NCBI GenBank assembly: GCA_040954595.2
Contig: CM082581.2
Location: 2,720,699-2,784,698 of the forward strand
Direction: 5' to 3'
Length of the DNA stretch: 64,000 bases
From: Balanoglossus misakiensis
Taxonomy: Eukaryota > Animalia > Hemichordata
In this document: positions 11,685 to 52,927 of the stretch, piece by piece
Position numbering within the stretch: the stretch's first letter is position 1
Layout of the letters: the number at the start of each line of letters is the position of its first letter
The notes under the pieces: generated by a model
The model's database searches: none
The model's input: the letters and a program-made list of their open reading frames with translations, nothing else
What the model was told of the DNA's origin: nothing
Translations under genes and position numbers: made by a program

Positions 11685-12101
11685 CACAGGGGGCTCTCCC
11701 TCCGCGATTTTATTGTTTGTTTGTTTGTTGTTGTTGTTGTTGTTGTTGATTGGCATTATAAACAAATACATATTTCTTTATTAATAAATATGGTTTGTTG
11801 ACATGTAAGTGTTAGGGAATATTCAACGGTTAGCATTAGTGTTGGCACTTTTTTCGATCCACGGCCCCGGGCATCACTAAGCCACGAAGAGAGGGTGATG
11901 CTGGCCGTGGATCGCAAAAATGCCAACACTAATACTAACAGTTGAATATACCATAACCTGTCAAATATACCCTAATAACCTAACCCTTACATGTCAACAA
12001 ACCATATTTATTGACAAAGAAATATGTATTTGTTTATAATGCCAATCAACAACAACAACAAACAAACACACAATAAAATTGCGGAGGGAGAGCCCCCTGT
12101 G
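11685..12101. mobile_element. Palindromic MITE with CAC..GTG ends
   Basis: CACAGGGGGCTCTCCCTCCGC..GCGGAGGGAGAGCCCCCTGTG inverted repeats extend through most of the element. It is flanked by direct repeat GTGTTAC (11678-11684, 12102-12108); an alternative reading is CCAC..GTGG with TGTTA. Confidence 0.85.
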
Positions 12102-12547
12102 GTGTTACGGTACCACCTGCCCCACAATGACAAAGCTGACTCGAGGCCACGAACGACGTACAATTTACTCGCACGGTGTAAAACAACGCATGAATTCCAT
12201 GCGACTGTGAGTTTACTGTTCGGCGCTGTAACGCTTCCCAAAGTCAGAATTTCGATGTTGGGAAGACACTGTCGCCCTACCACTACCAGTTTTTGCAAGA
12301 AGGAGTGTACATGTACTTGTAAAATAACATTAAATGCCATGCTTACCAGAGAAACGACATCATCAAGCATGGAGGCGACCGGGACCTCCATGCTTGATGA
12401 ACGTCGAAGCTGCAATGATTTTTCAAATGCAACGGTCAGCGGTACGAGAACGAGGCAGCACCTGCTCGTCAATTATGCAAATTAGTTACTACTCAATCAG
12501 AATCTTGCTTTCGCATTCTAATTAGTCAAAGTATGCAGTGCAACGTT

Positions 12548-32062: not shown

Positions 32063-35002
32063 CACGCCCAACCCCGACACTTTTCTTGTTTTACCAATCC
32101 TACCAACTATTGTATTGACTTGTCATTTTAATTTATTCATAGATTTCTTTATTGCAACGATATACCATTATATACTTCAATTACTTTAAGAAAATTATAA
32201 TTGACGTGTTGAGGAGCCTCATTCCCTTTATTGCATACAGTGTACATAGGATCATGACGGCGAATGTTTTCGGAGAGGGGGGGGGTCATCATATTGTTAG
32301 GCCTGTCAAGGGGGGGGGGGTCGTCGTTTTTTTGGTCCTGGGTGAAGGGGGGGGGTTGGCCTGATTTTGAAAACCGATGACACAAACTTGCCAACCTCCC
32401 CCCCCCCAGCCGTAAAAACTGAACGGTCCCTTATTGGATTGGTTACAAAATTGCTGTACGAGCTTTCTATGATTTGACCGCCGAAACCGCGATCAGCGAA
32501 TTGCGTTGTGCTATACGATTCGAGGATAGTCATTCTGAGTAATTGAATTCAATTAGCCTTACATTCCATGCCTGCCTAGCTGCAATAATTGTAGCCTTGT
32601 TGGGCTGGTTGGGTGGCTGGATGGCCCACCATCTACCCACCCAACTAGGCCACCAATGCTTCAATTATTGCATATAATGCCAACCTAGGCCTACTTGATT
32701 GGTGATGTGCGACAAGCATGCTAATAATATATTGCGCTGCACATAGGGTAAGGCTTGCATGCCCAGAGACAGAGTAAAATTTTAACGTTAAACAATATAA
32801 ACAATAAAATGTTTTTTTCACCAAAAAATTAATTTTCCGGTCAGTAGCTGACTTGTTGGAACGTAGGGACAGTATGACAGGTCATACATCTGCCGCCATA
32901 TCACGTAAAAACATCGGTGTAACATGGCCAGAAATAGTACATCGTTGTGATTGGTTGGGATCCTGTTTTGGCGTGCTTCATTGACGCATCCATGAATAGA
33001 TTTTTGTTTGTGTTTGATAGAAAAAAAATGCCCGACCGGGTTGCACAGTTAAGTGGTTTTGGCTACTGACGGGCACTGGGTAGATATATAGAAACCATGT
33101 ATAGAGACAACCATGCATTTTTTTCCGAAATTGTGATTGATACTTAGAACTTCGAAAATCTATACGATTTAACTAAATGCATTTTCTGGTAAAGGTGAAG
33201 TCTGTCAGAACATGATATACAGTTTTTAAAGAGCAGATTACGAATAAAAATTTAAATGCAACTGAGAACCACGTGATTCTTGTCGTAGATTGTCGCATCA
33301 TACAGCCAGGTCTGTTGTGACTTCACAAATGACACGTCGAAATTTCGTGTGGCAAACGGTATTCGCCATCAACAAAAAGGTACCGGGAAAGTTTCGACTG
33401 GCATGCCGGAATTCTGCATCATGTACACCGGCAGGTTTTTTTTGAGATGACAAAGGCGGTTTTTCACAACTTTGCCTTGTCACGTTTATCATGGTAATGC
33501 ACGACGGCCAAATGTCGGACTTGTGTCGGGCAGATTTTGCAGTCCCGACAAAACATATTTCTACAGAGCAGGCTTCGATGGCATACCGCTGTTATCAAAA
33601 TCCATTATTCGACTATGTTCCCAATACCAAGATCGGCTATTCTCGACAGCGACTTTCTCCAGGGAATACCAACTCCGCCGTATGATCTACAAATCAGAAT
33701 GCCAGTGCCGTTTTCATTGACGATGGCATGGAAAAGCTTATGAATATTGGTGAGAATTAGTAGTTCGTTGTTACACAATCAATGTTATTGTAACAGCCGA
33801 CTTTAACGCCACAGCAATACATGAAGCGATGTGGACGCTCGAAAAGAGAGACAAAAGTTCTGTTCTCCTGGTCTCTGCTCTGCTCTCACTAGAGAATGTA
33901 ATTTCATAAAGACAGTACTGAATAAAAGAGATTAAATGCACCAAAAAGTTGAATTTCCTTAATGATATTTTATTTCTGAGATTTGCACATTTTTACTTTT
34001 TCAGGGGTGCAGGAAGCAATTTCTTGTACGGGGACAAAGTTACATATTTTCTGGACACAATTGATTTATGATAAAAATTGAATAGCTGAATAAATTGATT
34101 AATGATTAAATGCAAATAATAAAATGAGAGAAATAGCAAGAAATAAAGTGAACAAATATTATTGTAAAAGCTCCAGTATCTGTTATGATTGACAATTTTC
34201 TCAGTATTGTTCCAAAAATTGAATTCGACTGTGTATTCATTTCACACACATTGCTACAAATGTACTTTCTTCGATCAGCGACTTTCGTTAAAGATTAGTT
34301 TGATTGGCGTCAAATTACTGATACATGAAGCCTCCCAGCCAATTACACTGTATGTTCCAAAAACAACAACATGTGCGCTTCTATTATGTTTGATTTTTAT
34401 ACTTTCAGTTATTCACAGTGATTGCGCCATTCTTTAAATCCATATCCCCATTGGTGTAAAATATGATCATTGGCGGGGGTGGGGGAGGGGGTAAGAGGGG
34501 ATTTTGTGCATGGTGGGGGGGGGGGGTTAAGTATGGTTTTACCCTGCCCCCGAAACTTAGTTAGGGGCGGAGATACACTCCCGGTTTCAAAGCCAATATG
34601 GGGGGGGGGGGGGGTTGTAATTGCTATTACCGGTATATCAACTCGATTTCATAACCTTTTTAAAGATTAAATTTGATAAGAATGGGATGCATTCAATTCT
34701 GGAGAATGTTGTTTGCAACCAATCTCTGTATCAACTTAAATTTAAAGTAAATAAGAATTAAAGTAGCGACGACAAATAAGATGACGAACATGTTTTGGTC
34801 TTTCATTCCAAATAGACTCATCACAGGCATCAGAAAATTTAAACCTTTGGAGTTTCACTCTTTCTTCTGACATTTTGCTTGCTCTTGATGAAAAAAGAGA
34901 GGTTTTCTTGGCATTACTCGATCTTTCCGCAGCATTTGATACTGTGAACCATACCATTTTATATGGAAAGCCATGACTGTCTTATGATGTGTGACAACTT
35001 TA

Positions 35003-35420
35003 TGTGGTGAGGTTATTACTTGACGTGATGGGGAAATGCAACGACGTGGGGAGGTTATTGCTTTACGTGATGAGGACATGCAACGACGTGGGGAGGTTAT
35101 TTCTTGACGGGATGGGGAAATGCAACGACGTGGGGAGGTTATTATTTTGGCGTGATGGGGACATGCAACGACGTGGGGAGGTTAATTCTTGACGTGATGG
35201 GGACATGCAACGACGTGGGGAGGTTATTTCTTGACGGGATGGGGAAATGCAACGACGTGGGGAGGTTAATTCTTGACGTGATGGGGACATGCAACGACGT
35301 GGGGAGGTTATTTCTTGACGTGATGGGGAAATGCAACGATGTGGTGAGGTTATTTCTTGACGTGATGAGGACATGCAACGACGTGGGGAGGTTATTGCTT
35401 TACGTGATGAGGACATGCCA
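35003..35420 (+). repeat. Left subterminal 42-bp minisatellite (~10 copies)
   Basis: Unit GTGGGGAGGTTATTTCTTGACGTGATGGGGAAATGCAACGAC. Confidence 0.92.
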
Positions 35421-38400
35421 TTATGATGTGACGAGGGCGCTGTTACGGAGGGCGCTCTTTTTCTATTGATAAAAGTCAAAATGGAGGACTTGCTGAGGAG
35501 AGGGGGGCTCATACGACTCCTCCCAAGATTTCAGGAGGAAAGAATCGATATTACAACAGTATTGTCCTTAACCAATGAAGAATTGGCTCGATTGGGAGTT
35601 ACCAAAGTAGGTGATCGTTCTAGACTGAGGGATTTATGCAGACCCCACACATCAAATGAGTTTTCTCGAAGTGACCAAGCTGGCGTCGCCAGCACTAGTG
35701 GCACTGCAAGTTCAAGTCACGTACAAAGGGAGCGGTCACTTTTGTTTACGCCTAATCAAAGCAGAGCACAACACAGTTACGGCCGAAGAAGTCGTGCAAA
35801 GAAATGTAAGCGGACATGGACTGGACAGTTTGTTTGTCTTGCTGATCGTAACACCAGTAGCGTCCCATCGTCTGAAATCAAGCAGATACTAACTCGTGCT
35901 GGACTTGGACTGAAACGGCTAACTCTTGACAACGAATGTAATAGCAGAGACTTGATGGATACTTTGATGTCTGATGCTGGATTTCCACAAATACGTGATT
36001 GTGGGGGTGTAGAACTGCTATATTGTGCTCATGCTAAGAAACTAAATGTAATCACATGCAGTTGGTCAGTTCCTGATTTGAAAGCTAATTTAGGGGCTCA
36101 GAGTAAGATATACATAAGACCTGTGCAGAAAAACTTGTCTACTAAACCCATCAATCCAGAGACTGCTGAAGATCCAATAACCCAGATGTGTATGGGCTGT
36201 TTAAATGAATATGATATTCGTGAATTACGTGAACACATGATGACCTGCACAGCACCTTTTGATTCTGATGAAGAAGAGGTTACATATTGTGACAGGAATG
36301 AAGAACAGGATGATAATACTATTATTATTGATCCAGTAGAAAACACAAGGTGAGTTAATCTGCCAATGCTCTCTTTGTTGATAAGTATAGTTTATCTTAT
36401 TCTGATGTAAAACATGTCAAACAATGCAAAATGTTTTAATTTAATGAAAGCTTCTTTGTATACCTGTATGTACATGTATTTTTGTAACGCATTTTGTACC
36501 TTAATGGTAAATAACAACAAAGCATGTCCGACAGTCATAACAATAGTGCCATTTCCCAATGTGTGAATAGTGGTTTTTCTCCCTGGTGATGGCAGTAATT
36601 GCAAGAATTGTGTGTGGTTTACCTGCCAAACACGGACACTATCTAGTATATCATACAATGTATCTGTGCACAATGTCAGTGTATTAAATGCAGGGCAGCA
36701 AGGTCAAAGGATGGAATTTCTCTGAGTTTTAATGTATGCATTGCTTGTTTTCCCCCAGTGACACCACTAGTGGTACCACAATTGTAACACCAAATGAGAG
36801 TGTTGGCCAGTCTGCTGCTGCTTCAGATCCAGAAATCACTGTAAGTTATCATTGATGGCAATTTGATGTAACTGCTTGTATCAGTATGTGTGAAATGCTG
36901 GATTCATAGACAGCAGTGTTTCATCCAGGATGGCATCAATGGGGTGGGGCATCATGCCATGCCCCCTTTGCTAGAATATTTGAGGGGGATTTCACTCTGG
37001 CTAGGGGGTATGTAACATCTCCAACATGTGAGTGACCAATTTGTAAGGGGCACTACCCCCATAACAAATTACTAAGGGGTGAAACCCATCACCCCTCCCC
37101 CGATCTACATGAAACACTGGGGACATAGTAACCTATCCATATCACTTTGATATTTGCAAGTAAACATTGTACAAATCAATTGTGAAACTTGTAAAATAGA
37201 CACATTAGATATAACAGATCTAAAGTCCCAGTCAATGTCACTATTGATTATTTTTTCACAAGTTATGTTTTGTGTGTCAATTGCAAACTCTTGTTTTACT
37301 CCTGAAAGCATGGTAAAATTGACCTGTAAATGTGTAAACAGCATGGGTATTGTTGACAAGTACATTCTAGTCTGGACTGAAATTAAAACCGCAGCAATAT
37401 CAGTGAAGCTTTGTCTCTGTTTTAACAAGCTGAACATTGGGTATTTCAACATTCTATCAGAAGTAGAACAAGAATGAGCAATTGACGCACACACAAAAAA
37501 AGTAAAAAAACATCAAAGTGACAATTTGATTTACTGGGGCTTAACCCTTTCACCCCAGTTCCCACTTTCGAGGTCCAACTTTACCATAGGGTGAAACAGT
37601 GGGGTTGGACAGAACCATGGTGGTGAAAGGGACATTTGGCACCATGTGGAACTGAAATCTTAAAATCCAATTCTGCATTAATTGTGTTAATTCACACAAA
37701 GTAATGTGAATGATTTTTCATTTTTTGTAGCCATACCACACCAGTGAGATGTGTACAGTGGATGATGTTGTGAATACAACTTATGAATACTGCAACGACA
37801 ACAATGTATCCGATCCTGTTGAAATTTTGAGAATTTTTCAAAGTAAAATGGTAACTGGTCGGAAATTGGACATCGAAGATTCAGGTGATGTTGTCGAAGG
37901 TGAAACCAATTTCATTATGGTCAACAGATCTGAAGTCTTACGCACAGCATTTGATGAGATTGGTTTGATCAACGACCCAAGACTGACTTTGGAAGTGGAA
38001 TTCTATGGAGAGGTATGTATTTTGCAAGTTTTCTATATATATACATTCCTCATCGAATTGAAAATGGATAAACTTGGCATGTACTGCACTCAAGACGTAT
38101 GAAGTGATTAAGCAACAAATCTTTACAAATTACAGGAGGCCAGGGACTTTGGTGGCCCCAGGAAAGAATTTTTTACTGAAGTACTGAGGGAAATAAATGA
38201 CAAGTACTTTGAAACTGGTTTAAAACCACATCTTGAGGAAGACTATAAAATTATTGGCACCATAATGGGTAAGTTGTACAATACTTATTTAAGAGCCATG
38301 CACAGCAATTTGAACATTTTGTTTGTTTCTCAATGAATTATAATAAACATGGTTGTCCATTATTCATATTGACATTTCAATATTCTTTGCTAATCAATGT

Positions 38401-38695
38401 ATAGGACTAAGCACACTACAGAATGGAAGAATTCCACAGTTCATGAGTGAAGAAGTGCGACAGCAGCTATTTGAAAAGCCTTCTCCATCCCCATGCATTG
38501 AGAAACTGAGACAAGGGTTTGACAAACTTGGCATTTGCAAGGTATGTCGTTATTCAGTCAACAAGTTGGTATGATAAAAGTATAATTTTTAATAAATTCC
38601 CTTGTCAACCTCACAAGCTACATTGATTAGCTCATAGTCCTTATAGCAATCTTCTTGTAACTAGAACAATTTAATGTTAAATCATTGCTATTTAA

Positions 38696-39304
38696 AGGGG
38701 AAATCTGGCCTAGCTGATTTCTACATAATTTGGTAGCTTTGAGGTCACTCTTTCAGAATAAAACATATTTGCCATGTATAAGTCGCGCGATTTTTTACAA
38801 AATCGAGGGAAAGTTGGCAGAATTTCCAATATGGCATTTACTGTAATTTGAATCATGGAAAAAAGCGCCAGGACCAACTTCCGCCCACCATGGTGTGGGT
38901 GATACCATTCTCCGATTGGTGTCACTTGGCGACAGACTAGGTGTATTTGCATAGCTATTGTTTGTACTTTGCGTCAGTTGATAAATAATCATCAGCAAAG
39001 TTGAAAATCTATTGACAGCTTTCATGAGCTATAACCCGTGAAAAAATATGCAAATACGCCTAGCCTGTCACGCAGTGACACCAACCGGAAAATGGTATCA
39101 CCCACACCAAGGTGGGCGGAAGTTGGTCCTGGCGCTTTTTTCCATGATTCAAATTACAGTAAATGCCATATTGGAAATTCTGCCAACTTTCCCTCGATTT
39201 TGTAAAAAATCGCGCGACTTATACATGGCGAATATGTTTTATTCTGAAAGAGTGACCTCAAAGCTACCAAATTATGTAGAAATCAGCTAGACCGGATTTC
39301 CCCT
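38696..39304. mobile_element. Palindromic MITE, Kolobok-like (TTAA TSD, AGGGG..CCCCT ends), in a HECT intron
   Basis: ~255-bp inverted arms, which explain the mirror ORFs 38710-38952 and 39048-39290. TTAA at 38692-38695 and 39305-39308. Confidence 0.88.
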
Positions 39305-39522
39305 TTAAGTAGTCTTACAGTTGTTTGTTTCATTGCAGCTTGTTAAGAAACTACCCCTGCTTGTGCATTTATTTGTGCCAATGCCAACAGTGCCTTGACA
39401 TTCAGAAAGCTGAAGACCCTATTAAAACCCAAGTTCAGTCCCGATGGATCTAATAATCGCAGAGAAGAGAACAACGTGTACGCGAGCTTCATTTCGTACA
39501 TGACAGAAGCTGCAGGCAAGTA

Positions 39523-41880
39523 TTTTTAGCTCACGTGAAAATCACGTGAGCTTATGGTTTAGCGATGTCTGTGTGTGTGTATGTATGTGTGTGTGTGTGT
39601 GTGTCTGTCTGTATACCCGATATCTCAAGAACCGCTGAACCGGTTTCAACTAAATTTAGTACACAGGTTTAGATATCATATGGCAAGAACTGAAAAGGTT
39701 TTGGTGGGTGTGGCTTTGATATTAATGAAGTTATTTAAGTTTTAATTTTTCTATTACATGGTTGTCTATGTGAGCTTTCGTAAATGCCGCATATATGACC
39801 AGTAGAAACGATAGTTTGAGGAGATCGACTGTTTGAGGGCGCTGTGAAATGAGACATTCCTGGCGATATTGCCGTGGTTCTGTCCATGCTCAGACGCTGT
39901 ACCCGTCGTTACGAATAACTTCCCTACGTGAATCCACAAGGAAGCTAACGTTGTTTAGTTGCTTCATAGAGCGTAAATTGTTAATCTACAGGACCGTCAG
40001 ACGAATACTCTTTTCAAATGAAGTTTGAAACTACTTACGAGTAAGTTAGTGGAGACAATATGGCGGATAGTTGGCGTGCAGCCGAATCCGCGTTATGACT
40101 ATGACGTGACCCATTCATCAAGACAAACCGTAAATGATTCACGCATATTGTGGTCCTCACGCAGTCAATCTCAAAATGTCACCAGGCTTTCTATTTGTCT
40201 ATTGTTCAGAGAAAAATAATGTGGCGGTTGATCACACTCAACAGTAAAATCCGTTTTGTGAATTTATAGACAGTCTGTTATCGCCAATACTATATAGCGA
40301 TTGCTAGATGGCCTACCCAATATGTGATCGAGCGAGAATGATAACATTGAATGTCTGTTAAGATCTCATTCCGTACGTCATACGTCAACATTTCGATTTC
40401 GATTTAATCCATTCATAAAGAATTTAGAGAAAGTCGTCTTGAATTGTGACCCCGATTATCAATTTTACGATGTTTTTTTTGGCGACGGAATACACGAGAC
40501 GCCATTGCATAACTACGTCAGCTGGACTTCCAAGGTTACCATTTTGTGTGTATGGAATCTTATCACAGAGACTACGTACTTTGACAATATGCCATGCTAT
40601 ATCAATGACGCCCCAGAAAATTTGTCGAAGAATGAATTTGTCTTCTCATGGTGGTGCAATATATTTTAATGTCTATTTTGAGGTTGATTTTGGTTTTTGG
40701 CTAACATGTATATCAATGTCAGCTTATAGCATAAGTTGGTGTCCGTCGTCTATGTATGTCTGTATGTGTGCCTCATACAGAATTATGTATTTTGCGAACG
40801 GATCAGTTTCGTCTAAATGTATTGATGTATGTATGTGTATGTCCATCAACATCAAAAACTTGAAAATACTGATATTTAGTGTGTACATAGAAATTGTTAT
40901 TGCGAAAAAAATGCATACTGGTATTAACTGGAAAAATGTTCAAATAGTCAAAATTGAAAAACTTAATAACAGCGGATCAGATTCAGTTAAAAATTGGCGT
41001 GCATTGGTGTGCAAGTACTATGGGAAGACCTCGTATGATTTTGTTCAGGTGGAGTCAGTATCTGGCGTTTGCTATTTTTTATGAATTTTTGGGGGAATTT
41101 TCTGCAGTTTTGTTAAACAAATTTCTTCTCTGAAATTACATGTCCAATTGATTGGAAACTTGGTATGGAGGTTCATAGGGCTTACCTGAATCACATTTGT
41201 GCAAACGGTGGTGAAATTTGCAAAAATGCATTTTTGGGCAATATTTCCTGTTTTTGTCAAAAAATCAAATCCCGTGAAACTGTAAGTGCAATTGTTTTGA
41301 TACTTTGTATTTGGGTTTCTAGGGGTGATCTCAGTCAGATATGATCAAATTGTAAAGAAATTTGCATAATTGTATTTTTGGGGAATTCTGCAGGGTTTGG
41401 CCAAATAGTCTTCAGTAAAACCACAAGTCCAATTGATTGGAAACTTTGAATGGGAATTCATATATGTGATATCAGTCAGATTTGTCTGAATTACCTGTTG
41501 TTTGCCAAAATGTCTTCCTTATTGAAACTTGTTAAAGAGGTTCTTAGGCATGAACAGAAATCAGATTTGTTGAAATCTGGTGAAATATTCATACTTTTTG
41601 GTATATTTCTTGCCATTTTTGATCAACGAGTTTTAGAATTCCATAGACTTATCTTTTTATGCAGTTCAGGATGGGGTACATGACTCATAACCCCTTACAA
41701 AAATTGACAAGGCAACAATTCCACAAACATGTTTACATTTCACAATGGTGCAACACACAACCCTTACACCATATACACTATAAACCAAATTGGTTTAACA
41801 CTGGTTTTTCTAATCTTGTTATTCTGTCAACCAATCACAGTACTGCACGTGAGCATATTCAGTTAATATCTGGTTGCAGA
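39523..41880 (+). mobile_element. Helentron/DINE-1-like composite non-autonomous element in a HECT intron
   Basis: Starts TTTTTAGCTCACGTGAAAATCACGTGAGCT (hairpin) followed by a (GT)n microsatellite; subterminal inverted CACGTGAGC at ~41846. Boundaries approximate. Confidence 0.55.
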
Positions 41881-41923
41881 CATAAAACACAAAAGGGGGA
41901 TTCTGTCTGTCTGTATGCATGCA

Positions 41924-41959
<36 letters not shown>

Positions 41960-42696
41960 TTTGTTTGTATACTTACCATTTTTATTGACAAATCCGATCC
42001 TCTAAACCACTTGTCACATTGCTTTCAAATTTGAATGGCATGTTACTATGATTTGTTGAGTGAAACTGCTTCTTATATTTGTGTTTGTATGGACACTTTT
42101 TGCCATTTTTGGTCCCCCAAAAAACAAAAATATTTCTCTAGAACCGCATGTCAGATTGCCATGATACTTGATAGGCAAGTTAATTTTCTCTACATTTCTG
42201 TATTTATAATATTTGCTTAGATCATGTCTGCTAACAAATTTCATGTGCATGTTATTTTTATTCCAGTGTACACATATTTCTGTGCAATCCCTAAATGGGA
42301 CAAAAGTGTTATTGACGGTGTTTTTATACTTCTCTCTTCAATTTAGGTGGTAGGAGATGCGATGGTGACATCACCCTCAATCATATACTGAAATTTGTCA
42401 CATGTGATCTTGAGGAACCAGTTCTTGGCTATACAGAAGCTCCTGCTATTGATTTTTATGAAGCAGGATCTTCTTTCATTCCGACAGCCAACACCTGTAT
42501 TAATATGTTGAAGCTGCCCAGAGGTACCCAGGACAATCCACTTCCAGACAGAGACATTCTGTTTAAACTATATGATTATGCGTTTTCAAATAACTATTTT
42601 GGTGCGGTATAACTTTTTATACCACTCCAGGTCATGTGACCTATTGTTCTTGCCATCCATTTTTTTCTAGGCAAATTAGTAATCAGCTACCGTATA

Positions 42697-43125
42697 CTTT
42701 TATTAGCTCTGCTCTCACTTGTGTCAGCCGAGCTATAGCAGTAGGTTGATAAGTGTCCGTCCGGCGTCCGTCAACTTTTGGTATTTCAATCTTCTTCTTT
42801 AAAACAACTTGACATATTTAGCTGAAATTTGGTTGGAATATGTGTTATGGTGTCCTTAACTGATTTTGTTCATTTGGATTTGATAGGGTCATGAATATGC
42901 AAATTAGAACCTTGGTGCTTCCTTTTGTTGTTCTTTAGGATTCAATTCTTTCTTTCTTTAGCACAATGAATCAAGCTGAATTTGGATAAATACTTGTGAT
43001 GTCTATGTTTGGTTTTGTTCAATAGAATACAATTGTTATGAATTAAAACCTAGGGTATTCATATCATTGCCCAGGTTACACTGTTAAAGTCAGCAGAGCT
43101 CTTTTGACCGACAGGTCACGTGTTT
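42697..43125 (+). mobile_element. Short Helentron/DINE-1-like element
   Basis: AGCTCTGCT near 42705 and inverted AGCAGAGCT near 43092, GTCC microsatellite, 3' hairpin TGACC-GACA-GGTCA, T-rich ends. Confidence 0.55.
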
Positions 43126-44765
43126 CATTATATGTCCTAGGATATATAATACAGTTTAAGCATTTTAAAAATCCAGTTGGTGTGTTCATTGAAAGCAATC
43201 TAGTAAGTCTCTCAAAAGTTACATGTTGTATGTATTGGTAGTGATTTTTCTAAGATAGTTTTTCTGGGGTCACTGATCAAGAATTACTTTGGTTAATACT
43301 TGGCCAGGATGCTCTCTGTTAAGATTGTTGTGTTCAGTGTAGCTTGCAACTTTTACAAAGTTGAATAAAAAAGAGTTATCTTGAAAAAAAGTTGTTTCTA
43401 TTGTGATATTTTGAGGCTCATGCTATAGAGTCAGTTGGTCAATGAGTAGTCGTGCACCCGACTGATATTGCAAATAGTCATGTGCCCTGGTGGTCATACT
43501 GGGTTTTCTGAAAAAAGTAAAAATGGCATTTTATCCTTAACTAAAGTACAAATCAAGTTTTATTTTGGTGTGCGATATACATGTCTTCTGCCCTTCAAAG
43601 TTTGCCAATAAATCAAGAGTAATCACATGACTTTTGCCGCCATATTGAATTTAAAAATATCCCAGAACCAGTTATTACTGAGTTGTACGATTATGTGTAT
43701 GTGTTCCCCTGATTGAGGTCTTGAAAGATTATCAGATTTCAGAGCGGTGTACTGAGGGTGGCCATATTGTTTTTCCCAAAAAAATACAAAACGACTTGCA
43801 TTCCAAAACCAGACTGCTATTTTAATAATTATGATTGAGAAATACAAATGTGTGGTTCGTTCATGTTCAAGCATGGCAAATGTACACATTCTTATTTCTC
43901 CAGTAGTTCTAGGCCATGCTTGAATTCCAGACATATCATGAAGCAAATTTGAATGTTAGTTGCAGGAATATACTACTATACACTGCAACTCATGTGGTAA
44001 CCGTATTCAGAATGATTGGTTGCCTTGCATAACAATTATATCAAGGATTTCCTGTAAAGTTTTGAATAATTGATAATGCATTCCTGTATATGTCAATACC
44101 ATGATTTTCTGATTGCCATGTTGGTGATATTGATCGTGAAAGTAGAGCCAAGCATTCATCAGTTGGTTGCATGGAAGGGCCATCCAAGATGGTCTGGAGT
44201 GATTTGTGGGTTCAAAGTCAACGTCTCCTTCGACTCCATACTCGTCAATATCACTGTCAGACAGGTCGATCCCAATGGGATTTTGTAACTGACCTGCAAC
44301 CCATAAACGAAGTGGTGATGAACCCACTGTCCTCAATCTGTGACAAATCCAGGCATTTCGCCAGAGTTCTAATTTGTGATTGATCCTTTCCAGAAACACA
44401 TAATGAAGGGCTGCAATGTGAACAGGATTTAATGGATCCAGAATGGAATTGTCCTCCAAAAAGTAAAATACCTCATAGTACAGAGCAAGCACTCCTTCAT
44501 AAGCATCACGCCATAACCTTTCAATTCTCTGGTTATGCACACTGCTACCTGTGATCATACTGCCACAGTTAACTCCTCGCTTTTCTATCATAAAATCCGC
44601 AATATAGACATTTTCCATGCCTTTGTCAGATCAAACCCTGCTTGGAATGCCATAGGTTCTAACAGCTGATTTAAAGCATGCCAATAAGGTATCTGCTCTG
44701 TTGTTATCCCTGCATTGTAGCATTACAGGAAGTCGGCTGACTCCATCAATGCCACCAATGATAAC

Positions 44766-47700
44766 TAGAGAACATTACGTCATAGCAGATAGACGATCTT
44801 TATATTGATGCGCATGCGCGACCATGTTGCATTGCGAGACACTCTCTCACATTTCCAAAGTACTTGCTCTGTACGTGTTTGGTTATTGTTGTCACATAAA
44901 GTGATCAAACAAATAGAATCGTGTTCTTATTTATAACCAAACAAGTACAGAGCAACCGAGCGGAGCTGCGGACACTTAACAAGGCGACGCTGGATGCGAA
45001 GTTAGTGAACCACAACAGCACCCACGACGACGGACAGGCCGCTGTGCACATCACCACTGCAAGCCACTGTTACACGTCGACATCCGCCGTATACGTGGAG
45101 CAGTACTCAGCTCGGAACAGTACACGCACGTGTGAGTAGCCAAAATCGGAACATTGTAAACTCCCCCGATGGCGCCCGTAAATGCGAGATGCCCGATCGA
45201 GAATTGTGACTATGCAGCCACACATACAGAGGCAGCGATAGTGGCGGCCATGTTGAATATACACGCCACTGTACATACAGCAGCCCCCAATGCGCCAGGA
45301 GGGAACGCTAAGGTCGAGAAATTGAGGCGCCCAACCATAGCACTAGCTGGAACGAGCGAGACCTGGTCGTACTTTATAACCCGTTGGGAAGAATACAAAA
45401 CGGGTACAAAACTCACCGGGCCTGACGTGGTTTCACAACTGCTGGAATGCTGTGAGGAAGACCTCAGAAAAGATCTCACTCGATCAGCAGGTAGGAGCTT
45501 AGCGAACAATAATGAGAAAGACGTCCTGGCGGCCATGAGGGCGCTCGCCGTCCGAGCAGAAAACACCATGGTGGCTCGGGTAGCACTGTCCAATATGCGG
45601 CAGGGTCATGAAGAGCCAGTTCGGTCATTCCATGCCCGTATTAAAGGACAGGCAGATACATGTAAATACACAATGAAGTGCACCAAGGCCGGTTGTGAGC
45701 AAATTAACGACTTCACAGAGGAAATACTGCGTGATGTGATTGCCCGGGGCATAGCAGACCAGGAAATTCAACTTGACCTGCTCGGTGAGAAAAATCAAAA
45801 CATGCTACTGAAGGACATGATAGAATACATCGAGGCCAAGGAATCTGGCAGACGCTCTGCATCAAGCCTGCTCGACCCCCGAAGCAGCGACGCAATTAGT
45901 AGCTCGTACCGGCGGGTAAAACAACGGGACGTCCGCACTAAGAAGAGAGCCGGGCCGGAAAAACCCAAAATTAAACCCGAGGGGACATGCGTTTATTGCA
46001 ATGAGGGAGGCCACGGCAAAACACCTCAATGGCACATCAGACGTACTGAATGCCCCGCATATGGAAAAAAGTGCCAGAAATGCGGCCGTCAAAATCACCT
46101 GGACAGGGCGTGTCGGAGCAGCCGACCGGCCAGGCCCCCACCCAATGAAACTGATGAGGTGTATAACGAACAGACAGCAGTATTTACCGAACTGTGCACA
46201 GCCACCACAACCCACACAAATGACGAGCTATGCACGCTCCCCCTCGATCATCACCTGTACGACGACATGTGTAACAAGTGGATGAAACGCGTGTCCAGCC
46301 CGCAGCCATACGTCAACGTCACCCTCACCAGTGAACGGGAAGATTACAAAGCACTGGGCTTCGACCTCCCGAAGCGCACTCGCACAGTGTCCCTCCCCGC
46401 CATGGCTGACACAGGGTGTCAAAGCTGCTTGATTGGCATCAAAGTTGCCCAAAAAATGGGCCTGAGTACTGCGGACTTAATTCCAGTATCCATGACCATG
46501 AAAGCTGCAAACAACGAGGGGATCCGCATCCTTGGAGCGGCGGTGATCAGATTCGCCGGCGATACTGATAACGCTCGAAAGTTAGTAACGCGCCAAATCG
46601 CGTATGTGACAGACTCCACAGACCGCATATTCCTCTCCCGTGCAGCATGCGTCGACCTGGGGATGATCTCGGACAAATTCCCAACTCTGGGCGAAGTAAA
46701 CCTGACAAGTTCGGAATCATGCGACTGCCCGCGACGCGCAGAGCCGCCGACTAAACCAACCACACTCCCCATGCCAGCGACCGAGGCTAACAGAGAGGCA
46801 CTTCAGAAACATTTGTTGGAATTGTATGCTCAAAGCACATTCAACACGTGCCCACATCAAACATTGCCAAAAATGACTGGCCCACCACTTCCCCTTATGC
46901 TTGATGAGGACGCGACACCTGTCGCCCACCACACTCCCATCCCAGTGGCCGTACACTGGCAAGACGAAGTAAAAGCTGGTCTTGATCAGGATGTTCGCCT
47001 CGGCGTATTGGAGGAAGTACCCATAGGCACACCAGTCACATGGTGTCACCGCATGGTGATCTGTGCGAAAAAGAATGGCAAACCGAGACGCACCGTCGAC
47101 TTCCAAGCGTTAAACAAGCATGCATTTCGCGAAACCCACCACACTCAATCCCCGTTCCACCAAGCAAGACGTGTTCCTAACGGGAAGCGCAAAACAATCT
47201 TCGATGCATGGAACGGTTACCACAGTGTCCCACTACACGAAGATGACCGTCACAAAACAACCTTCATAACCCCATGGGGACGCTACCGCTATTTATCGGC
47301 CCCCCAAGGGTACATGGCTTCGGGAGACGGCTACTCACGGCGATATGATGAGTTAGTGGCGGACATCGGCAACAAGATTAAGTGCGTGGACGACACACTA
47401 CTATGGTCAGACACAATCGAAGAAAGCTACTTCCAAGCAGTCGAATGGCTGGACATATGCGGTCGGAACGGAATTGTCCTCAACCCTCAGAAATTCGTTT
47501 TCAGTGCACCCACAGTGGACTTTGCAGGCTTCACGATAACCATGACTGACGTGCGACCATGCAGCCGCTACCTGGAAGCCATCCACAATTTCCCACGACC
47601 ACGCAATATAACTGACATCAGATCATGGTTCGGGTTGGTCAACCAAGTGGCTTACGCCTTCAGTATGACGAAACGCATACAGCCATTCCGGAAACTTCTG

Positions 47701-50266
47701 AAAAGTGGCGTACGTTTCGAGTGGTCCCAGGAATTAGAGGACATATTCCGTGAGTCAAAAGAGGTAATTGTCCAAGAAATAGAGCACGGTGTCCGCATCT
47801 TTGACAAAACAAAACCAACATGCATAGCCACAGACTGGTCAAAGGACGGCATTGGATTCTGGCTACTACAGAAACACTGCTCATGCAGGCCAGTCAGGCC
47901 ATTCTGCTGCAGAGACGGATGGAAAATAACCCTCGTCGGTAGCAGATTCACACATGCAGCAGAATCCAGATACGCGCCCATAGAAGGGGAGGCTCTCGCT
48001 GTCGCAGATGCCTTGGACAAGGCACGCTACTTTGTACTGGGCTGCGAGAACTTAATCGTAGCGGTAGACCACAAACCGCTACTGAAACTCCTGGCAGACA
48101 GGTCTCTGGACGAAATACCCAACCCCCGCCTCAGAAACCTCAAGGAGAAGACCCTGCGTTACCGCTTCCGGATCGTACACATACCAGGTATGAAAAACAA
48201 GGCGGCAGATGCCATGTCACGGAGGCCGGTCGGCACCACGCAGCCATCACTCACGAAACTTCCGGACGACAATGCTACCATAGTGAGTCATCCCAACACA
48301 CACACCGAAATACTATCCCTCCTACGGCGTTCAGAACCAGAGGATGAACACAACAACGTAGAGAGCAACATAGCATGGTGTACCGCAGGCCTCAAATCAC
48401 TGCGATCGGTCACCTGGGACTGCGTCAGAGAGGCCACGTGCAGCGACAACGATATGCACATATTAGAGGAAATGGCAACGGATGGCATACCCGACTCGAA
48501 ATTTGAGATGCCAAAGACAATTCGTGACTTTCACCAACACCGCGAACACATCACATCGACAGACGGGGTGATTTTATACAAAGACAGAGTGGTCATACCA
48601 CCCTCTCTCCGCGATGAGGTGTTAAACGCCCTACACGCGGCCCATCAAGGCATATCAATGATGACCGCTCGCGCAGAATCCTCGGTGTTCTGGCCAGGCA
48701 TGTCGACTGACATCAAGACCACTCGAGAAAATTGCGAACACTGTCACCGAATGGCACCATCACAGCCCGGGGCACCGCCTACACCACCTGTCCCAGTTGT
48801 GTACCCTTTTCAGGCAGTTTGCTCGGACTTCTTCACACACAGAGGCGTACATTACCTCGTAACAGTAGACCGATACTCAAACTGGCCAATCATATCACAG
48901 TCAACAGGTGGCGCCACTGGCCTCATAAACCACCTACGCCGTGCTTTCGTGACATACGGAACTCCAGAAGAACTTACATCGGACGGGGGACCAGAATTCA
49001 CCTCCTCCGAGACCAGGGCATTCCTACACAGATGGGGTGTACACCACCGCCTCTCATCTGTGGCATTCCCCCACAGCAATTGCCGCGCAGAAATTGGTGT
49101 GAAGACGATGAAACGACTCATCACCAACAACACCGGCCCGAAGGGAGAACTTGACACTGACGCCGTACAGAGAGCGATACTACAATATCGTCACACACCT
49201 GACCCCGTCACGAAGATCTCCCCGGCAATGTGTGTCTTCGGCCACCCAATACGCGACTTCATCCCGGTTGTCCCAGGGAAATACAGACCACACGAGACAT
49301 GGCGGGAAACGCTGAAAGCAAGGGAAGAGGCCCTACGGAAACGCCACGTCCGCATGGCTGACAAATTGACAGAGCACACCAAACGACTTCCACCCCTGGC
49401 GGTTGGGGACTTAGTCCGCGTGCAGAACCAGACAGGAGCCCATCCTAACAAATGGGACAAGATGGGCAGTATTGTAGAAGTACGCCAACATGACCAATAC
49501 GTCATCAAGATTGATGGCTCGGGCCGAGTTACACTCCGAAACAGGAAATTTCTGCGCAAATTCAACCCTGTTCGCAAGGAAGAACCACCACCCAGATCAA
49601 TCTATGACGACATGGCTACACGTATCGCCATACCAACACCCGTCATAACACCGCCAATGACTGATGTCAACAGTGACCCCGCAACACCCTTAGGGTTTGA
49701 ACCACCCCCAGTGACCACACCGGTGAAAACACCTCATCACATGGCACCACCAAGTCCAGTCACACCGGCAACACTTGGCAGAATTACGCAACGGCGCATA
49801 TTTCATCAGACGCCTACTACAGCCCCCGAGACCTCGCGAGCTGATACTCCGCCAATACCCAACACAACACCCCCATCCATAGCAACGGGTCTACGTCGGT
49901 CCACAAGATCAACCAACGCGCCTACATGGCACAAGGACTACTCCATGGGATAGTCATCAGACTGTTATATTGTTACTTTGACATTTGTTCGTGCACACAG
50001 GATTATCATCCTATTTGTTACATTGAAGTTTTTTCACTTGCACAAATTTAACATTTTGCAGCCTTTATTCATGAGCATGAAAAAGACTCGGAGGGAGATA
50101 GAGAACATTACGTCATAGCAGATAGACGATCTTTATATTGATGCGCATGCGCGACCATGTTGCATTGCGAGACACTCTCTCACATTTCCAAAGTACTTGC
50201 TCTGTACGTGTTTGGTTATTGTTGTCACATAAAGTGATCAAACAAATAGAATCGTGTTCTTATTTA
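44766..50266 (+). mobile_element. Ty3/Gypsy LTR retrotransposon (Mag-like), intact
   Basis: 168-bp LTRs at 44766-44933 and 50099-50266, identical by eye. 5-bp TSD ATAAC (44761-44765, 50267-50271). Purine tract AAAAAGACTCGGAGGGAGA before the 3' LTR. Confidence 0.95.
45169..49953 (+). CDS. Gag-Pol polyprotein, 1594 aa, single ORF
   Basis: Zinc knuckles CVYC..H..C and CQKCGRQNHLDRAC, protease ADTGC, RT (RRTVDFQALN, DAWNGYH, CVDD), RNase H (TDWS, DHKPL, ADAMSR), integrase HHCC and D-D-E (SDFF, SDGGPEF, AEIGVK). PR-RT-RH-IN order. Confidence 0.96.
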   Translation: MAPVNARCPIENCDYAATHTEAAIVAAMLNIHATVHTAAPNAPGGNAKVEKLRRPTIALAGTSETWSYFITRWEEYKTGTKLTGPDVVSQLLECCEEDLRKDLTRSAGRSLANNNEKDVLAAMRALAVRAENTMVARVALSNMRQGHEEPVRSFHARIKGQADTCKYTMKCTKAGCEQINDFTEEILRDVIARGIADQEIQLDLLGEKNQNMLLKDMIEYIEAKESGRRSASSLLDPRSSDAISSSYRRVKQRDVRTKKRAGPEKPKIKPEGTCVYCNEGGHGKTPQWHIRRTECPAYGKKCQKCGRQNHLDRACRSSRPARPPPNETDEVYNEQTAVFTELCTATTTHTNDELCTLPLDHHLYDDMCNKWMKRVSSPQPYVNVTLTSEREDYKALGFDLPKRTRTVSLPAMADTGCQSCLIGIKVAQKMGLSTADLIPVSMTMKAANNEGIRILGAAVIRFAGDTDNARKLVTRQIAYVTDSTDRIFLSRAACVDLGMISDKFPTLGEVNLTSSESCDCPRRAEPPTKPTTLPMPATEANREALQKHLLELYAQSTFNTCPHQTLPKMTGPPLPLMLDEDATPVAHHTPIPVAVHWQDEVKAGLDQDVRLGVLEEVPIGTPVTWCHRMVICAKKNGKPRRTVDFQALNKHAFRETHHTQSPFHQARRVPNGKRKTIFDAWNGYHSVPLHEDDRHKTTFITPWGRYRYLSAPQGYMASGDGYSRRYDELVADIGNKIKCVDDTLLWSDTIEESYFQAVEWLDICGRNGIVLNPQKFVFSAPTVDFAGFTITMTDVRPCSRYLEAIHNFPRPRNITDIRSWFGLVNQVAYAFSMTKRIQPFRKLLKSGVRFEWSQELEDIFRESKEVIVQEIEHGVRIFDKTKPTCIATDWSKDGIGFWLLQKHCSCRPVRPFCCRDGWKITLVGSRFTHAAESRYAPIEGEALAVADALDKARYFVLGCENLIVAVDHKPLLKLLADRSLDEIPNPRLRNLKEKTLRYRFRIVHIPGMKNKAADAMSRRPVGTTQPSLTKLPDDNATIVSHPNTHTEILSLLRRSEPEDEHNNVESNIAWCTAGLKSLRSVTWDCVREATCSDNDMHILEEMATDGIPDSKFEMPKTIRDFHQHREHITSTDGVILYKDRVVIPPSLRDEVLNALHAAHQGISMMTARAESSVFWPGMSTDIKTTRENCEHCHRMAPSQPGAPPTPPVPVVYPFQAVCSDFFTHRGVHYLVTVDRYSNWPIISQSTGGATGLINHLRRAFVTYGTPEELTSDGGPEFTSSETRAFLHRWGVHHRLSSVAFPHSNCRAEIGVKTMKRLITNNTGPKGELDTDAVQRAILQYRHTPDPVTKISPAMCVFGHPIRDFIPVVPGKYRPHETWRETLKAREEALRKRHVRMADKLTEHTKRLPPLAVGDLVRVQNQTGAHPNKWDKMGSIVEVRQHDQYVIKIDGSGRVTLRNRKFLRKFNPVRKEEPPPRSIYDDMATRIAIPTPVITPPMTDVNSDPATPLGFEPPPVTTPVKTPHHMAPPSPVTPATLGRITQRRIFHQTPTTAPETSRADTPPIPNTTPPSIATGLRRSTRSTNAPTWHKDYSMG

Positions 50267-51064
50267 ATAACTATTCCCCAACGTATGAGTTTGTGGTTTG
50301 TATCAATATGCCAGAGTTGATTTGGGCCTTTAACATTGTACACATGCCTCAGTAATCTACCACGTTTCCTTGCTTCAACTCCATTTCCATCAATGCGGTG
50401 TACACTATCCCTAAGTCTCTGGTGTTGTACTTTAATTCCAGTCTTTTCCATGAGCAAGTGCGTCAACATGTTATGCCCACAATAGGGGAACTCTTTTGTT
50501 AGTTCCTCCATATGAACATCAAGTTCTTCATCTAAAATATCACTAAACATCATTTTGCTGAGCCCATACTGTCTCATTCTACGGTATATTGTACTTTCTG
50601 ACACAATGAGCATTGAGGCTATTTCTGAGATCTTGAATCCTTGGTCCAAATGGGTTTCCAAAATGTGTCTAGGTATGAGAAATTGAGGAGCACCAGAAGA
50701 ACTTTGCACTTGTGGAGGAGTTCCACTGCCAAATGTTACACATGCTGTACGCAAAGCCATTTGATCAGCAGGGTTTTTCAAACCAACAGATTCCAGTTCA
50801 TACCTTGACAAGTTACACACAATGTCAGGTGTTATGTTCTCCATGTCAAATGTCCTGGATAGATGCCCAAGGTTTAGTTGAAGCAGTAAAGCTGACATAT
50901 TTGTCACTGAATCCATTTTTGCAAAATCTGCAAACTCCAATTCAATATGGCAGACTGAATATGAAGCTACGCATCATGGGATATCCATAAAATATCAACC
51001 ATTAGATACAAAATAATCAACATATAAGAACTAGCTGTCATCCCACATAATATATATTCTCAAC

Positions 51065-51760
51065 ACATAAGGAAAAAACCTCACCACATCATACCATTAC
51101 ATCATCACATAAGGAGATAACCTCACCACATCGTTACATTACATCATCACATAAGGAAATAACCTCACCACATCATGACATTACATCATCACATAAGGAA
51201 AAAACCTCACCACATCATGACATTACGTCATCACATAAGGAAAAAACCTCACCAAATCATGCCATTACGTCATCACATAAGGAAATAACCTCACCACATC
51301 ATTACATTACGTCATCACATAAGGAAAAAACCTCACCACATCATGACATTACGTCATCACATAAGGAAAAAACCTCACCACATCATGCCATTACGTCATC
51401 ACATAAGGAAATAACCTCACCACATCATTACATTACGTCATCACATAAGGAAAAAACCTCACCACATCATGCTATTACGTCATCACATAAGGAAATAACC
51501 TCACCACATCATTACATTACGTCATCACATAAGGAAAAAACCTCACCACATCATGACATTACGTCATCACATAAGGAAAAAACCTCACCACATCATGCCA
51601 TTACGTCATCACATAAGGAAATAACCTCACCACATCGTTGCATTTCCCCATCACGTCAAGTAATAACCTCACCACGTCGTTGCATGTCCTCATCACGTAA
51701 AGCAATAACCTCCCCACATATTTGCATTTCCCCATCATGTCAAGTAATAACCTCACCACA
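51065..51760 (-). repeat. Right subterminal 42-bp minisatellite (~16 copies), inverted relative of the left array
   Basis: Unit CACATAAGGAAAAAACCTCACCACATCATGACATTACGTCAT. The outermost units (51620-51760) are reverse complements of the left-array unit. Confidence 0.92.
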
Positions 51761-52927
51761 TAAAGTTGTCACACATCATAAGACAGTCATGGCTTTCCAT
51801 AATTTTACTCAATCGCTTAAGAGACTGCTTTGGTCTTTCAGATACTGTTCTCATGTGGTTTAAATCATACCTTTCCAATCGTAGTCAGTGTGTACTTGTA
51901 AATTCCACCCAATCACCTTTCTATCCACTCGACACTGGGGTACCACAGGGATCAGTTCTTGGTCCCATACTTTTCAATATGTACACGTCTCCATTAGGTG
52001 AATTAGTTCCTTTTTCAATGTCGAATTTTATGTTTTGACTGAATTTGCGTGTCACCTGACAGGTCTTCGCATTCATCAGAAGCTATCGTGCGTCGCTGAG
52101 ATTTGATTCTTCATAAAAGAAAATTATTTCATAACCATACCAAATAAAACATTTCCAGAAATTTAGAAGTTTGCAGACTTTTCTGCTAGTTGTCTATTTA
52201 GTGTTGAAGTCACGCTGAACTGCCAAATTTAACACAGACTCGCCGTCAACACTCAAACAGTGTACTTCTTCTACGAGTGTGTCCTGTAACTGCCTTCCTT
52301 CAATAACCATACAACAACAAATAGACGGTAAACGTTTATGCAATACCAATGGATTTATGTTTTTAAACTGGTCGACAGTCGGGAAGTATGCATGAACAAT
52401 CGATTGATTGGATTCCCCAGCGATACTATTGTATCTTGTGATTTTTTGTAGTGAAACTGTGGAAATCGGCAGGCTGCATTGCCAGTTGTTCTGCACATGC
52501 GCAGTTCCTCTGTCTTGAAAGAAAAGTCAAATTTCACCAACTTATAAATGTTCATTCGGAAAATAAACCCCAAATGTTTTCTTTGTGACCAAAAATACTG
52601 CCAGTGTGATTTTGTGCTCAAATCCAAGCTATTATTATTTAAATTGACTTGTGATACCCTCTCTTAGCACAAAAAGCATAATTTCAGCCCCAAAATGGTT
52701 GCCATAGAAACATGTGATCACTAAACGGATATCAATTTTTTTGTGGAAATCGGACCAATTATTATTAAAATTATTATTTTTATATAATTCTTTACTTAAT
52801 TAAAATCTGACTTTGAGGCACATATTACCTTAATTTTGATCAAAATTTAATTAGCCAACCAAGGAACATGCATACTGGTACCTTCCTTCTAGTATTTAAG
52901 AGGGAACCAGTTTTGGCCAAATCATTG

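Follow-up and report, generated by a model that had tools for sequence, protein, structure and literature searches.

The 64,000-nt stretch of Balanoglossus misakiensis DNA analyzed here (the window, within which all positions are numbered) contains a decayed DNA transposon of 16.8 kb with two convergent genes between its ends, one for a transposase and the other for a HECT-type ubiquitin ligase, each with a SAM domain predicted at its N-terminus (Table 1). A sequence-only reading of the stretch had described two convergent genes starting just inside 42-bp arrays. This arrangement was borne out, as the ligase start codon (35481, + strand) lies 62 nt inward of the left array and that of the transposase (50916, - strand) lies 143 nt inward of the right array. 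Arrays with 21/42-bp units were also found close to the transposase in many related loci, and the subterminal arrays are likely to represent transposase binding sites.

The outermost 63 nt of the two ends of the element are identical and the terminal inverted repeats (TIRs) are 95% alike across 182 nt. The first 25 nt of the left TIR matched 7 of 80 related loci at 23 of 25 positions. The insertion site is inside the reverse-transcriptase frame of a host long interspersed nuclear element (LINE), and that frame resumes beyond the transposon. In addition, contigs from run X1 contain the empty-site joint (34955 to 51802, with six letters shared). Runs X1 and X2 are possibly from the window's own sample and are not counted as independent evidence; runs X3 and X4 contributed a small share, with coverage mainly of the nested repeats and the host LINE.

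By all the features examined, the element belongs to the known IS3EU/GingerRoot superfamily. The parts of the published descriptions that were available (PMC10045372, PMC12730594, PMC6839031) give these elements TA..TA ends (TAYGG..CCRTA in fungal families), a 6-bp target-site duplication (TSD), TIRs longer than 30 bp, and an integrase-like DDE transposase with a helix-turn-helix N-terminal part and without the HHCC motif. The first catalytic Asp of such transposases is expected 100–300 residues in. The element in the window has TATGG..CCATA ends, the TSD ATTTTA on each side together with the empty-site joint, TIRs well beyond 30 bp, and a transposase assigned to PF24764 with its first Asp at residue 205 and a D-34-E spacing. 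Helix-turn-helix matches were present in the transposase, and a Pfam search of it found no match to an integrase zinc-binding domain. The closest named proteins were from the acorn worm Ptychodera flava (69–75% identity), which by itself would make a hemichordate or a related animal the probable host. An acorn worm was among the first IS3EU hosts reported, in a source whose available portion also describes the structure and function of IS3EU as largely unexplored (PMC11934779).

The present copy is dead and neither enzyme is made intact, because the transposase gene is split and has a stop codon and a frameshift, and because a frameshift in ligase exon 6 puts the catalytic Cys out of frame. 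The SAM–helix-turn-helix–DDE transposase of the sequence-only reading was recovered as a set of domains (a SAM fold, helix-turn-helix matches and PF24764), but the gene itself is split by a nested long terminal repeat (LTR) retrotransposon of 5.5 kb. Contigs from both X1 and X2 have a joint without the LTR retrotransposon and one X1 contig has a single gap over 44067–44467, so a less damaged allele or copy of the element exists, possibly in the same sample as the window.

The ligase gene has seven exons and one GC donor. Exon 6 lacks one base, so that the reading frame of the spliced gene runs into a stop at codon 521, short of the C-lobe. As a consequence, the Cys of the PTANTC motif, which had been read as intact, is present as a codon in exon 7 but is not reached. 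Two explanations for the missing base were rejected: a read error, as an X2 contig has identical letters over 39313–39450, including the gap, and a programmed, family-wide shift, as the related loci L001 and L033 are open across the spot. Read through with an X at this position, the product would be about 648 residues, with 70% identity to the P. flava model P0072 and 41–49% to five other relatives. Pfam identified the SAM domain (PF00536, E 8e-6, 26.6 bits against a cut-off of 23) and the HECT domain (PF00632, E 3e-6, above the cut-off) in the ligase of this copy, and gave no match for exons 3–6 taken singly.

A second P. flava model, P0091 (XP_070549505.1), also seems to be one base short at the place corresponding to window 39375–39385, despite only about 70% identity to the window; this may be a repeated mutation, or P0072 may contain a hidden correction. 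Both P. flava models end at the GC donor (window 39516), as if the gene callers had missed the last exon.

The nested LTR retrotransposon looks recent, with LTRs identical at 168 of 168 positions and an open frame of 1597 codons. It is odd in that its LTRs have TA..TA ends and a TGG-type primer site is absent after the 5' LTR. At least three high-copy repeats were inserted in the ligase introns and the intergenic gap (38688–39312, 39528–41880, and about 42700–43500).

Table 1. Features of the transposon and its insertion site, in window positions.
Feature	Position	Strand	Basis or remarks
Host LINE reverse-transcriptase fragment, left of insertion	34785..34961	+	RVT_1 positions 61-88, E 0.074
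Left 6-bp TSD, ATTTTA	34956..34961		
Whole element, IS3EU/GingerRoot-type, decayed copy with nested insertions	34962..51801		TIRs, TSD, empty-site joint
Left TIR, begins TATGG	34962..35143	+	182 nt, 95% complementary to right arm
Left subterminal array	35004..35418		9.9 x 42 bp, two 21-bp half units
Ligase exon 1: SAM (aa 1-55), conserved short helix, predicted ubiquitin-like beta-grasp domain (about aa 111-222), C2HC finger (aa 237-256)	35481..36349	+	Folds from relative P0074
Ligase exon 2: low-complexity linker	36759..36840	+	AG/GT borders, frame preserved
Ligase exon 3: pre-HECT helices and start of N-lobe	37731..38012	+	Homology to P0072/P0074
Ligase exon 4: N-lobe	38136..38268	+	
Ligase exon 5: spans site of E2-binding subdomain in solved HECT domains	38405..38541	+	
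Fold-back miniature element in ligase intron 5	38688..39312		266-nt arms, 95%; many contigs
Ligase exon 6	39339..39515	+	Frameshift of one base near 39380; ends at a GC splice donor
Repeat within ligase intron 6, approximate borders	39528..41880		Contigs join 39527 to sequence like that near 41880; many contigs
Ligase exon 7: C-lobe	42347..42612	+	Cys codon 42496-42498, Phe four residues from end; out of frame here
Transposase 3' piece	44041..44765	-	TGA at 44631-33 directly before second Asp; D-34-E; frameshift near 44190
Nested Ty3/gypsy-type LTR retrotransposon	44766..50266	+	Identical 168-bp LTRs, 5-bp duplication ATAAC, open 1597-codon frame 45160-49953
Transposase 5' piece: SAM (aa 7-63), two helix-turn-helix domains, first catalytic Asp (aa 205)	50272..50916	-	
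Right subterminal array	51060..51719		15.7 x 42 bp
Right TIR, terminates CCATA	51620..51801	-	Arm complementarity
Right 6-bp TSD, ATTTTA	51802..51807		
Host LINE reverse-transcriptase fragment, right of insertion, same frame carried on	51802..52038	+	RVT_1 positions 97-139, E 2e-5

The ligase gene across the transposon family

A scan of metagenome contigs with the transposase alignment found 128 loci, of which 80 were kept. Twenty-four of these had a transposase that reached residue 270 of 367 and at least 700 nt of downstream sequence. Convergent ligase matches were identified in 11 of the 24 and none was on the transposase strand; for SAM-type transposases with at least 1300 nt downstream, a convergent ligase was found in five of seven. 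The gap between the ligase end and the transposase end in the positive loci was 0.3–1.8 kb, and two loci, L072 and L077, retained only the start of the ligase. A twelfth locus outside this count, L031, had ligase matches beside a truncated transposase. In the coral Desmophyllum pertusum, a HECT model (KAJ7380778.1) and an integrase model (KAJ7380779.1) have consecutive accessions on one contig.

Ligase models also recurred as near-copies. Hydractinia has six, of which four accessions share a single sequence and the other two by eye each depart from it at one residue, and several near-copies each were found in Dreissena, Mytilus, Antedon and Ptychodera. Dispersed, near-identical models are what a mobile gene would be expected to leave. 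Comparison of 10 transposon-linked C-lobe segments gave proportions of nonsynonymous differences (pN) of 0.14–0.38 against synonymous proportions (pS) of 0.65–0.88 in 43 of 45 pairs, and the two near-identical pairs had pN/pS values of 0.007/0.008 and 0.026/0.111. On these codon comparisons, purifying selection acts on the ligase in cnidarians, molluscs, echinoderms, brachiopods and hemichordates. A profile search found 429 clusters at 50% identity (E up to 1e-30), with linkage to a transposase checked for few of them. No relative was found in the viral contigs searched and no locus in the bacterial and archaeal genomes searched.

The sequence-only reading had allowed that the HECT gene might be a one-off capture by a single copy. 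The convergent loci, the recurring near-copies and the purifying selection all indicated otherwise, and the HECT gene is almost certainly the family's own.

Several derivatives and unusual models were encountered in these searches. Minus-strand SAM matches in L027, L058, L066 and L068 were dropped as candidate ligase SAMs, being inverted duplicates of the transposase start. These loci (L058 at 4745–6385) are fold-back derivatives in which the transposase-side arm, together with the first part of the transposase gene, is present as an inverted pair. P0266, a model of 627 residues, has a Mutator-like transposase match fused to part of this HECT family and may be a gene-calling artefact. L074 has, by eye, a HECT-N-lobe-like frame at 11949–12533 on the transposase strand, 6 kb downstream, for which a Pfam HECT match was absent.

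The matched SAM domains

A SAM domain had been claimed for both proteins. That of the ligase passed the Pfam cut-off, whereas the transposase N-terminus had no Pfam match in this copy and a weak match in the relative P0002. In the model of the transposase N-terminus there are five helices (residues 7–13, 17–25, 30–33, 38–43 and 49–63), and the Foldseek matches listed for it were all SAM domains, yet with E values of 0.05 or worse. A wide structure search aligned its residues 4–65 with the tankyrase SAM (Z 9.1, root-mean-square deviation (rmsd) 2.5, 62 residues aligned), and the structure match of the ligase SAM was of similar quality (Z 9.6, rmsd 2.1, 59 aligned). Both N-termini are SAM folds in these models, and the claim was upheld to that extent.

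The ligase and transposase SAMs are homologous to each other, as judged by profile–profile comparison (probability 96.7%, E 4e-10) and by a reciprocal hidden Markov model (HMM) search in which either SAM HMM recovered the opposite set in full (27 of 27 and 30 of 30). Within this comparison, which covered SAMs of the element family, a shared origin of the two inside the element is likely. Among ligases with at least 70 residues before the middle domain, 70 of 75 carry a SAM.

In the canonical SAM–SAM contact, one domain presents a basic end-helix face, and a Gly that opens helix 5 on this face bonds the acidic mid-loop face of the partner domain (described in the available part of PMC10935306). 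The helix-5 Gly was present in all 33 ligase SAMs, beside D (32/33), R (31/33), R (33/33) and a nearly invariant T. The transposase SAMs have no fixed residue at the aligned position (S 8, A 6, N 4 of 28), and these domains have a conserved mid-loop region, with the motifs E-K-I-T-P-D and L-S-x-x-E/D (T 27/28, P 25/28, D 22/28, S 27/28). Such complementary conserved faces are the pattern that would be expected of a one-way heterodimer. In addition, two families without SAMs (L053/L057 and L072/L077) have a transposase that begins with a helical segment and a ligase that begins with one short helix, so that a SAM is on neither protein. Several unlinked ligases likewise begin with a short helix.

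We consider it probable that the ligase docks on the transposase through the N-termini, because the two SAMs are homologous, their conserved faces are complementary, and the SAM is absent from both proteins in the same elements. The SAM–SAM pairing put forward in the sequence-only reading thereby gained two indirect supports, the complementary surfaces and the matched swap of N-termini; the pairing itself we still infer.

These surfaces also bear on a different explanation, in which the transposase, or a polymer of the ligase's own SAM, is only a guide and the ligase removes host silencing proteins or modifies the chromatin of the element. The ligase SAM could polymerise, as it retains an acidic mid-loop (E20 in 28/29, D/E23 in 29/30, D/E32 in 32/33) together with the end-helix face, and both genes begin beside the terminal arrays. 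Fungal IS3EU families carry TET/JBP dioxygenases that, in the accessible part of PMC12730594, are thought to counter methylation. However, the ligases that were scanned showed no chromatin-reader domain, and the matched N-termini indicate the transposase as the partner. An anti-silencing or anti-defence function is in our view unlikely.

The shortened HECT domain and possible roles of the ligase

The ligase folds were taken from the modelled structure of the relative P0074 (built on a 150-row alignment, mean predicted local distance difference test score (pLDDT) of 83). In this model the SAM is followed by a short conserved helix, then by a beta-grasp domain, a C2HC finger, a disordered linker and the HECT domain. 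Residues 119–235 of P0074 aligned with the TBK1 ubiquitin-like domain (Z 7.1–7.9, rmsd 2.3–2.4, 76–79 aligned) and with Ufm1 (Z 7.1), and the beta-grasp domain matched the RAWUL cluster with a template modeling (TM) score of 0.54 over 102 residues. Based on these middling scores, the middle domain is predicted to have a ubiquitin-like beta-grasp fold, an assignment of fold only, and a feature search of the ESM Atlas did not assign it to a family. The finger (C-x2-C-x11-H-x3-C) has its three Cys in 88/90, 86/90 and 87/91 sequences and its His in 87/108. Both the predicted ubiquitin-like domain and the finger had been missed between the SAM and the HECT in the sequence-only reading.

The ESM Atlas search with P0074 115–235 also found the same ubiquitin-like domain in two kinds of chordate protein, Neuralized-HECT proteins (TM 0.78) and C2H2 zinc-finger proteins, where it comes first (TM 0.70–0.71); these may be domesticated forms of the transposon's domain. 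When the P0074 model was compared with solved structures, TRIP12 (PDB 9gkn_A) was the only HECT aligned as far as the ubiquitin-like domain (353 aligned, rmsd 18.7), which hints at a similar domain before the TRIP12 HECT.

The C-terminal domain was identified as a HECT by its fold as well as by the PF00632 match. Its best structural match was the ubiquitin-conjugated HECT of HUWE1 (Z 22.4, rmsd 3.0, 270 aligned of 384), and the catalytic Cys was kept in 65 of 69 rows and a Phe or Tyr at -4 in 49 of 55. The domain is, however, short. Between the same two anchors, the median length in the family was 109 residues (49 proteins, range 55–115) compared to 178 in E6AP, and the median distance from the DxGG motif to the Cys was 195 (41 family members) compared to about 277 in E6AP and 288 in AREL1. 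The profile match to E6AP ended at residue 644 (of the 875-residue form), which we take to be the small subdomain's edge. In the P0074 model only six residues lie between helices 505–513 and 520–530, there is no strand from 443 to 565, and the beta-hairpin is absent at the site of the E2-binding subdomain, with pLDDT >90. The small subdomain, with the binding site for the ubiquitin-conjugating enzyme (E2), consists of helices 6–8 and strands 5–6 in the available part of PMC3077247, one passage of which places E2 binding also on the surface of the large subdomain. The HECT of this family is therefore predicted to be about 70 residues short where the E2-binding subdomain lies, with the Cys retained; by eye, the distant ligase of L057 seems to retain part of this segment.

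Because its HECT would be without the E2-binding subdomain region, the ligase could not work in the textbook way. The view that the element has its own E3 ubiquitin ligase holds insofar as the family carries a HECT gene, but by this prediction the textbook route would be closed to it. An explanation in which the protein is not a usual ligase fits the missing residues: as a scaffold, ubiquitin-binding decoy or thioester acceptor it would shield the transposase from degradation by the host. The ubiquitin-like domain and the finger could engage proteins of the ubiquitin system, and vertebrate G2E3 is described in part of PMC3673628 as having a divergent, non-functional HECT. Retention of the Cys and of the -4 aromatic, and the match to a HECT conjugated with ubiquitin, are evidence to the contrary, and we think such a non-catalytic shield quite unlikely. 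From the sequences and the model, the ligase seems more apt to be active than not in intact elements.

Our favored reading, held tentatively, is that in intact elements of which the window has a decayed IS3EU/GingerRoot copy, the ligase docks by SAM–SAM contact and ubiquitylates the transposase complex or a neighbor so that the jump is finished. The transposase would bind the 21/42-bp terminal arrays by its helix-turn-helix domains and so bring the ligase to the element ends, where the end-helix face of the ligase would bind the mid-loop face of the transposase in a one-way contact. Ubiquitin would then reach the conserved Cys by a non-standard route, for example from an E2 to which the ubiquitin-like domain, the finger or a partner protein holds on; for partner-based anchoring of an E2, a precedent is named in the title of PDB entry 1zvd. 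Finally, the ligase would tag the transposase complex or an adjacent host protein, allowing the jump to be completed. Clearing of the spent transposition complex is one possible completion step, by analogy with the disassembly of bacterial transposition complexes. That the ligase acts on the transposition complex falls a little short of probable.

The same docking evidence would serve self-limitation, whereby the ligase degrades the transposase and keeps copy number low, the pairing being kept since hosts with unrestrained elements fare worse. By argument rather than test, ligase-free derivatives such as L024 should outcompete an element that restrains itself, yet the ligase is under purifying selection. 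Self-limitation is accordingly the explanation we find hardest to credit, and we rate it improbable.

Several observations weigh against our favored reading of a docked, transposition-coupled ligase. No ligase match was found in 13 of the 24 loci, of which three hold <1 kb downstream and are uninformative, and in which the profile may miss distant ligases. L024 (1261–4290) is a complete TIR-to-TIR element of 3.0 kb with long TIRs, a broken SAM-type transposase and no ligase, and in L052 the right array was reached with no ligase match. The ligase folds all come from P0074, which is 49% identical to this copy, and loss of the E2-binding region as predicted argues against ordinary ligase activity. 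The matched N-terminal swap involves two non-SAM families and one SAM lineage only, and may be a single historical event. In a C-lobe tree, which is weak (127 columns, a quick search, 10 identical rows of 78 dropped), SAM-less ligases such as P0279 and P0169 fall inside the group that holds all SAM ligases (Shimodaira–Hasegawa-like approximate likelihood ratio test 84). Furthermore, RNA, lipids and unrelated proteins are also among the ligands of SAM domains.

A broader form of the same reading is that animal IS3EU elements encode a minimal HECT without the E2-binding subdomain, charged by a new route and coupled to the transposase by an exchangeable two-part clip, with ubiquitylation built into transposition. 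The clip would be SAM and SAM in one lineage and helix and helical bundle in others. We regard this broader form as rather unlikely. If true, a widespread eukaryotic transposon family would control its transposition through a ubiquitin enzyme that it encodes, and a natural HECT working without the textbook E2 site would provide a direct test of how HECT enzymes are charged. Many dispersed "uncharacterized HECT" models in marine invertebrates may then belong to transposons and so raise E3 counts. Intact members include Hydractinia XP_057290583.1 and Ptychodera XP_070581505.1. Those present in multiple copies, such as the 648-residue models of Hydractinia, make these ideas testable in a laboratory animal.

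Relation to known systems

The available portions of four IS3EU/GingerRoot descriptions (PMC10045372, PMC12730594, PMC11934779, PMC6839031) name no HECT, ubiquitin or SAM genes, and our literature searches turned up no account of a HECT or SAM gene in IS3EU, with Repbase records, Kojima 2019 and supplements, which may bear on novelty, outside the search. Conserved host-derived proteins are mentioned for DNA transposons in general (PMC3520738, in part). A parallel is provided by fungal IS3EU elements with an alpha-kinase and TET/JBP, which similarly have a second gene for a protein-modifying enzyme opposite to the transposase; they differ in that the enzymes are a kinase and a dioxygenase rather than a HECT, and paired N-terminal domains are not described in the part of that source available (PMC12730594).

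Compared to G2E3 and the "GL-Metazoa" HECT families, the ligases are alike in being highly divergent metazoan HECT proteins. G2E3 differs, by the description in part of PMC3673628, in having three RING/PHD-like fingers and a non-functional HECT, whereas the transposon family is without those fingers and keeps the Cys. RING/PHD-like fingers were found in none of eight family proteins or 23 further ones scanned. The suggestion that many G2E3-like gene models of invertebrates are such transposon cargo was not supported, as no family member name shown reads "G2E3", in a comparison that did not survey the G2E3-like models themselves. The G2E3 passages of PMC3673628 and PMC2837046 make no mention of transposons; PMC9547173, also available in part, is a further source on G2E3.

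With HECT E3 ligases such as E6AP, NEDD4, HUWE1, UBR5 and AREL1, the family shares the bilobal fold, the pre-HECT helix, the Cys motif and the C-terminal aromatic residue. It is 80–95 residues shorter from DxGG to Cys, mostly in the small E2-binding subdomain, and adds an N-terminal SAM, the predicted ubiquitin-like domain and the C2HC finger. What appears new here is the ligase arrangement of SAM–ubiquitin-like–C2HC–HECT without the E2-binding subdomain, together with matched homologous SAMs that have complementary faces. SAM–SAM heterodimers of the end-helix/mid-loop type, such as EphA2/SHIP2 (PMC10935306, in part), are alike in that one partner has the helix-5 Gly and basic residues and the other an acidic mid-loop. 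In the present case binding is inferred, and both SAMs share homology and are encoded by two genes of one mobile element.

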